Origin: Escherichia coli
GTDB lineage: Bacteria; Pseudomonadota; Gammaproteobacteria; Enterobacterales; Enterobacteriaceae
Reading direction: 5' to 3' (one strand)
DNA length: 338 bases
Assembly (NCBI RefSeq): GCF_003334335.1
Contig: NZ_QOWQ01000215.1
In this document: piece after piece, positions 1 through 338 of the stretch
Position numbering within the stretch: position 1 is the stretch's first letter
Layout of the letters: each line of letters begins with the position of its first letter
The notes under the pieces: model-generated
What the model was told of the DNA's origin: nothing
Databases searched by the model: none
Seen by the model: only the letters and a program-made list of their open reading frames with translations
Translations under genes and position numbers: made by a program

Positions 1-338
1 CCATACAGCACGGCATTCACCGCCTGCATTTCTTCCACCTGGACAATGGCGTGCTCTTCCTGTTTGAGGTTATCGGTGATGATACGCAGACGACGGTAGG
101 TCGGGTCGTTCAGCTGCGCCGGATCTTCACCGGGAAGGCGCTCCACCGCCTGCTGGTAATTAAATTCGTGTTTCGGCTTGACGTAGCCCGGACGTAACAC
201 GCGGGTTTCACCACCACGATGACGCAGCACTTTTCCTTCAACAACCGGGGAGACATAGGCTGCCACCGGCGTTTTTCCGGTAATTTTGTCCAGCATCACC
301 TCTTCGGTGTGGAAATTCACCGTACGGCGGAAAAACAG
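1..338 (-). CDS. E: Major capsid protein, lambda gpE family (internal fragment, truncated at both window edges); N-terminus lies beyond position 338, C-terminal ~200 codons beyond position 1
   Basis: Seen in sequence: the reverse-complement frame with codons at + 336-338 down to 3-5 is open for all 112 codons; the other two minus-strand frames hit stops within the first ~35 codons, and all three plus-strand frames contain stops. Translation: LFFRRTVNFHTEEVMLDKITGKTPVAAYVSPVVEGKVLRHRGGETRVLRPGYVKPKHEFNYQQAVERLPGEDPAQLNDPTYRRLRIITDNLKQEEHAIVQVEEMQAVNAVLY. Established knowledge (recalled, not searched): lambda gpE residues ~26-137 read LFFRESYPFTTEKVYLSQIPGLVNMALYVSPIVSGEVIRSRGGSTSEFTPGYVKPKHEVNPQMTLRRLPDEDPQNLADPAYRRRRIIMQNMRDEELAIAQVEEMQAVSAVLK. 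The two are collinear with no gaps, about 66/112 identical. Codon usage (CTG, CCG, GCG, CGT preferred) is typical of enterobacterial genes and lambdoid head genes. Confidence 0.85.
   Translation of the reverse strand, partial: MFFRRTVNFHTEEVMLDKITGKTPVAAYVSPVVEGKVLRHRGGETRVLRPGYVKPKHEFNYQQAVERLPGEDPAQLNDPTYRRLRIITDNLKQEEHAIVQVEEMQAVNAVLY

Follow-up and report, generated by a model that had tools for sequence, protein, structure and literature searches.

A probable prophage-borne fragment of a phage-21-type major capsid gene in Escherichia coli

The stretch analysed here (the window, 338 nt in all) raises two questions: which gene it was cut from, and whether the element that carried it is a free phage, a prophage or something less usual. 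We are almost certain that it is an internal, minus-strand piece of the major capsid gene of a lambdoid siphophage with a head module of the phage 21 type, most probably resident in an E. coli chromosome as a prophage and less probably part of a free phage genome. No result of the analysis speaks against this assignment.

Reading frame and protein family

Six-frame translation leaves minus-strand frame 1 as the sole frame that is free of stops across the 338 nt. It runs from window position 338 to 3 as 112 codons, and each of the other five frames contains between three and six stops. The 112-residue product is LFFRRTVNFHTEEVMLDKITGKTPVAAYVSPVVEGKVLRHRGGETRVLRPGYVKPKHEFNYQQAVERLPGEDPAQLNDPTYRRLRIITDNLKQEEHAIVQVEEMQAVNAVLY. 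A single uninterrupted frame had already been described in the first-pass annotation, which left its strand unnamed, and the description is borne out. The openness of the frame is nonetheless weak evidence, being only modestly unlikely by chance: when the window was shuffled 20,000 times at the mononucleotide level, 6.5% of the products had a full-length open frame. It is homology (phmmer, Pfam and PHROG), and not frame openness, that decides the assignment. The register against annotated identical genes makes positions 338 to 3 codons 26–137 of a 342-codon gene, uninterrupted throughout this portion, with positions 2 to 1 supplying GG, the first two bases of Gly138. The main feature is thus as follows.

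1–338, minus strand: internal fragment of a phage-21-type (lambda gpE family) major capsid protein gene, assigned from the sole open frame, homology and 100% nucleotide identity.

Residues 1–111 of the fragment align without gaps to residues 26–136 of lambda gpE (NC_001416, gene E), with 66 of 111 positions identical (59.5%). The earlier hand count of about 59% over the N-terminal third of gpE was therefore exact, and the gpE sequence that it used proves correct in the aligned region when compared with NC_001416. A phmmer search of PDB chains finds lambda gpE (7sj5/7vi9; E = 2e-35) in the same register as the pairwise alignment, and tblastn against lambda records likewise gives 2e-35. As the first-pass annotation had anticipated, the fragment also matches the Pfam profile for phage major capsid protein E (PF03864, Phage_cap_E), with an hmmscan i-Evalue of 3.8e-18 and a score of 66.1 over fragment residues 1–110, corresponding to positions 22–127 of the 329 in the model. 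The 'major head protein' family PHROG 2353 (phrog_2353) matches with E = 2.6e-65. NCBIfam release 20 contains no model matching this very common E. coli prophage capsid protein, whether as the fragment or at full length; the non-match is a gap in the library and not evidence against the capsid assignment.

A TBLASTN search with the 112-residue fragment matched 359 of 50,697 phage records. Annotated matches are nearly always to a major capsid or head protein, and the alignment covers the full fragment in lambda, 434, N15 and phage 21, which is the outcome that the lambda-like reading had predicted. The matches include a group of 20 records of the phage 21 type at 95–100% identity, a group at 59.5% which includes lambda, 434, N15 and Stx1a phages, and a tail at 27–43% in Aeromonas phages, Chi-like Casjensviridae, the Xylella phage Salvo and the Paenibacillus phage Lily.

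Phage 21 gene 7 and its head module

By megablast against phage records, all 338 nt recur unchanged in Escherichia phage PhiR5_1 (PV340545.1), a complete phage genome for which E. coli C is the recorded host, within the gene annotated 'major capsid protein E' (31868–32896). The window is also 100% identical at the nucleotide level to the gene for WP_000522645.1 in a prophage of E. coli O104:H4 (NZ_CP022086.2). To gene 7 (major capsid protein) of the classical lambdoid phage 21 the nucleotide identity is 94.4%, both in the head-operon record of the 1990s (M81255) and in the complete genome (OL657228). In the window the phage 21 sequence is far closer than that of lambda (98.2% versus 59.5% at the amino acid level, and 94.4% versus 60.9% at the nucleotide level). 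On this comparison the window is best regarded as an allele of phage 21 gene 7, and neither as a separate protein nor as an anonymous relative of lambda E. The first-pass description, a divergent lambda-gpE-like capsid gene, was accordingly right about the family and needs one refinement, to the gene-7 type of phage 21. Its view that this is a known family and not a novel system is upheld by the annotated identical matches; the capsid gene is already known and ordinary, and there is nothing new in the window.

Of the 19 base differences between the window and phage 21 gene 7, 16 fall at third codon positions. At the level of codons, 15 differences are synonymous and two are non-synonymous, a ratio which indicates purifying selection acting on the capsid frame.

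The window spans about one third of the capsid gene and carries none of the flanking sequence, so the gene context is read from relatives only. In both PhiR5_1 and the O104:H4 chromosome the order is Nu1-A-W-B-C/Nu3-decoration-E-FI-FII-Z-U-V-G-T-H-M-L-K, where Nu1 and A are the small and large terminase subunits, B is the portal, C/Nu3 is the S49 protease/scaffold and E is the major capsid protein. Where the capsid gene is 100% identical, the neighbouring decoration protein has 93.0% identity to SHP of phage 21 compared with 52.8% to lambda gpD; for the protease/scaffold the corresponding values are 94.4% (phage 21 gp5) and 54.1% (lambda C). In these identical loci it is therefore the whole head module, and not the capsid gene in isolation, that is of the phage 21 type. 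The order protease-decoration-capsid is kept in PhiR5_1, O104:H4, phage 21, lambda, N15, the Aeromonas phage PCAh2, E21, Chi and Salvo. Lily and Vibrio K251 have the same order by position, with the gene between protease and capsid annotated as hypothetical.

The O104:H4 prophage is about 40 kb long and adjoins yecD. All of its head and tail genes are annotated as intact, and it also carries J, lom, tail-fibre, lysis, Q-antiterminator and replication-region genes. In strain FDAARGOS_348 (10219–49001, locus numbering) it further contains three tRNA genes (Arg, Arg and Ile) and genes for a SASA-family carbohydrate esterase and an Ail/Lom family protein. A pair of genes, one for a nucleoid-associated protein and one for a hypothetical protein, is inserted between Q and the late region. 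Extras of this sort are what Stx-like lambdoid prophages typically carry as morons.

Two further observations concern the records themselves. The phage 21 entry M81255 annotates three repeats of ~105–115 nt at 1949–2343, termed 'Tri boxes' and listed there as of unknown function; they fall within scaffold gene 6, which precedes shp and gene 7, and are outside the window. Separately, the exact window recurs in the plus-strand orientation at 401–738 of OR844803.1, a 1498-nt 'UNVERIFIED_ORG' contig assigned to Escherichia phage ECO111 5-P from wastewater in Turkey, which probably represents prophage DNA of the host carried into a phage preparation. This contig is a candidate source of the window, along with dozens of E. 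coli genomes.

Prophage, remnant or another setting

The gene is widespread in E. coli. Matches are present in 1,909 of 5,426 complete genomes (about 35%), at 2,981 places of which 2,973 are on chromosomes, so that nearly all of them are chromosomal and therefore in prophages. This distribution agrees with the origin proposed at the outset, a lambdoid phage or prophage in an enterobacterial-type host. Identity reaches at least 99% in 65 E. coli records, the O104:H4 lineage among them, and the annotation is always 'major capsid protein'.

The alternative that survives best is that the window derives from a defective or cryptic prophage remnant, in which a break beyond the 338 bases has disabled the capsid gene or its module, so that particles are no longer made. 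Many lambdoid prophages of E. coli are known to be defective, which counts in favour of this reading. In addition, coverage of the window falls below 80% in about 300 of the 1914 E. coli records with a match, and in O157:H7 strains the capsid gene breaks off after 264 nt, next to a frameshifted tail-gene pseudogene. The window itself, however, continues with perfect capsid homology past the O157:H7 breakpoint, which falls at base 176 of the reverse-complemented window. Moreover, the identical genes belong to a complete phage genome, PhiR5_1, and to the O104:H4 prophage with its fully intact annotation of head and tail genes, and the pattern of substitution relative to phage 21 gene 7 indicates purifying selection. 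We consider a remnant unlikely, while according it some weight. The earlier statement that this part of the gene shows no sign of decay stands for the window, given the identity with the PhiR5_1 gene and the intact passage through the O157:H7 breakpoint.

One such broken locus was inspected in E. coli O157:H7 SS17 (NZ_CP008805.1; 3926–4913, locus numbering), where the pseudogene copy of the capsid gene abuts a frameshifted 'phage tail protein'. The arrangement implies a deletion of the remaining capsid gene together with FI, FII, Z, U and part of V. A patch of similar extent to this truncated copy occurs in the 254-kb genome of the T4-like Aeromonas phage AP1 (MT713136.1; Straboviridae), where 169 unannotated nucleotides are 98.2% identical to the capsid gene. 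The patch is located at 5001–5169 (locus numbering), near the end of the record and amid short hypothetical ORFs, and looks like an assembly chimera or contamination.

It is also conceivable that the head module sat in an unusual setting, for example in a non-E. coli host, or on a plasmid or phage-plasmid. Twelve plasmid records do contain copies with 80–97% identity. The content of the window supports no such setting, and even there the gene would be the same known capsid gene; we judge this origin very improbable.

Less probable still is a reading that treats the capsid-like frame as incidental and places the function on the plus strand or in a different frame, for example in a terminator, an antisense RNA or a small overlapping ORF. 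The window does contain two 48-residue ORFs in other frames (51–197 on the plus strand and 110–256 on the minus strand), and a single terminator-like hairpin.

265–281, plus strand: terminator-like hairpin ACCGGCGTTTTTCCGGT with a T-rich tail, antisense to the capsid frame and consistent with chance.

The ORFs were rejected since the substitution pattern, with its strong third-position bias, fits one coding constraint in the capsid frame. The hairpin was likewise rejected because its number lies within shuffle expectation (one site, against a shuffle mean of 0.3 with sd 0.7). Scanning both strands of the window against Rfam matched no family at E <= 1, and a scan of the window for sigma-70-like promoters found none. 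A repeat search of the window returned no inverted repeats and two short direct repeats only, of 12 nt (83%) and 10 nt (100%) with two copies each, which were rejected as chance. An overlapping or antisense function is thereby effectively refuted.

Least credible of all is an origin in a phage satellite (a capsid-forming PICI) or a domesticated HK97-fold element (an encapsulin or GTA) instead of a lambdoid phage, and these readings were rejected on identity and gene context: the HK97-fold proteins of the cf-PICI EcCI2 and encapsulins do appear in the fold search, but far down (ranks 33, 37, 45 and 47) with 7–11% identity and TM scores of 0.41–0.46, as against 60% and 0.82 for lambda gpE, and all examined loci with 94–100% identity are full lambdoid head-tail modules.

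Predicted fold, role and relation to known capsids

An AlphaFold2 model was built for a full-length protein whose sequence agrees with the fragment throughout, with a family alignment of 10 sequences (A1) as input. The model is of medium confidence (pTM 0.76, mean pLDDT 73.5), with pLDDT below 50 at residues 51–60 in the region of the E-loop tip. The best Foldseek match to the full-length model is lambda gpE (7sj5_A; TM 0.82, E = 2.6e-42), followed by 3bqw (TM 0.80) and then by YSD1, Chi, P23-45 and other HK97-fold capsids, and on this basis the full 342-residue protein is assigned the HK97 fold. The literature that we found on lambda gpE gives general descriptions only, with no residue-level domain boundaries, and the boundaries of the encoded elements were for that reason taken from the model.

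264–338, minus strand: distal N-arm, codons 26–50 (end of helix 22–27 and strand 30–33); AlphaFold2, boundaries approximate.
123–263, minus strand: E-loop region and linker, codons 51–97 (hairpin 62–66/69–73 and strand 81–83); AlphaFold2, boundaries approximate.
3–122, minus strand: helix 98–101 and the P-domain spine helix 104–137, codons 98–137; AlphaFold2, pLDDT 72–89 in this block.

The end of the window coincides with the end of the spine helix in the model. The most conserved motif of the family, PGYVKPKH (residues 75–82), lies in the E-loop region. Positions that are invariant or nearly so in the 10-sequence alignment are A51, V54, P56, G60, V62, G67, T70, P75, Y77, K79, P80, R92 and E96, together with P104, R107 and E128 in the spine-helix block.

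In lambda, 415 copies of gpE (PMC10721106) form a T=7 capsid (PMC10721106; PMC5701804). The N-terminus of gpD adds a strand to a sheet made of the two E-loop strands of one gpE and the N-arm strand of a neighbouring gpE, and it is this sheet that staples the capsomers at three-fold sites (PMC5701804). The phage 21 protein SHP, a homologue of gpD, forms trimers and binds at three-fold sites (PMC7602432), and Wendt and Feiss 2004, as cited in PMC7602432, are credited with the finding that SHP binds to lambda heads and alters particle stability. By analogy, residues 26–137 would supply the protein's contacts with the decoration protein and with adjacent subunits, along with the P-domain backbone helix. 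About 415 copies of the 342-residue protein would assemble around the portal, with the S49 protease/scaffold (gp5/gp6, the counterpart of lambda C/Nu3), to give a T=7 procapsid. This would expand during cos-dependent DNA packaging, after which SHP trimers, the counterparts of gpD, would clamp the expanded head at the three-fold sites. The copy number, T number, assembly pathway and binding of the decoration protein in this scheme are all inferred from the biology of lambda and phage 21, and T=7 assembly may be expected in addition from the presence of the identical gene in the complete PhiR5_1 genome.

The practical value of the sequence is as a marker, the allele being 100% identical in the O104:H4 lineage and in other E. 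coli strains. Its use lies mainly in annotation, where a minus-strand fragment of a phage-21-type capsid gene signals the head module of a phage or prophage in a genome of the E. coli type.

Compared with known systems, the fragment shows no difference from the capsid proteins of PhiR5_1 (XSB41322.1) and the O104:H4 prophage (WP_000522645.1), with all 112 residues and every nucleotide of the window the same. It shares 110 of its 112 residues with gp7 of phage 21 (AAA32346.1; genus Jouyvirus), which is also 342 residues long, is identical at 329 of 342 positions to the full-length relative that matches the window exactly, and is encoded after shp and before ORF1/FI; the only differences in the window are two conservative substitutions, A99 (Ser in phage 21) and T105 (Ala in phage 21). 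Lambda gpE (NP_040587.1; PDB 7sj5, 7vi9 and 8k39) shares the PF03864 family, 61% full-length identity, the fold (TM 0.82) and the same place in the head operon, but differs at ~40% of residues and is only about 61% identical in DNA, and its decoration partner gpD is about 53% identical to the SHP-type protein of the identical loci. The CFT073 prophage capsid of E. coli (PDB 3bqw) is similar over fragment residues 1–110 (E = 4.2e-27) and in fold (TM 0.80), but has 46% full-length identity and a single-residue indel in the N-arm/E-loop region.
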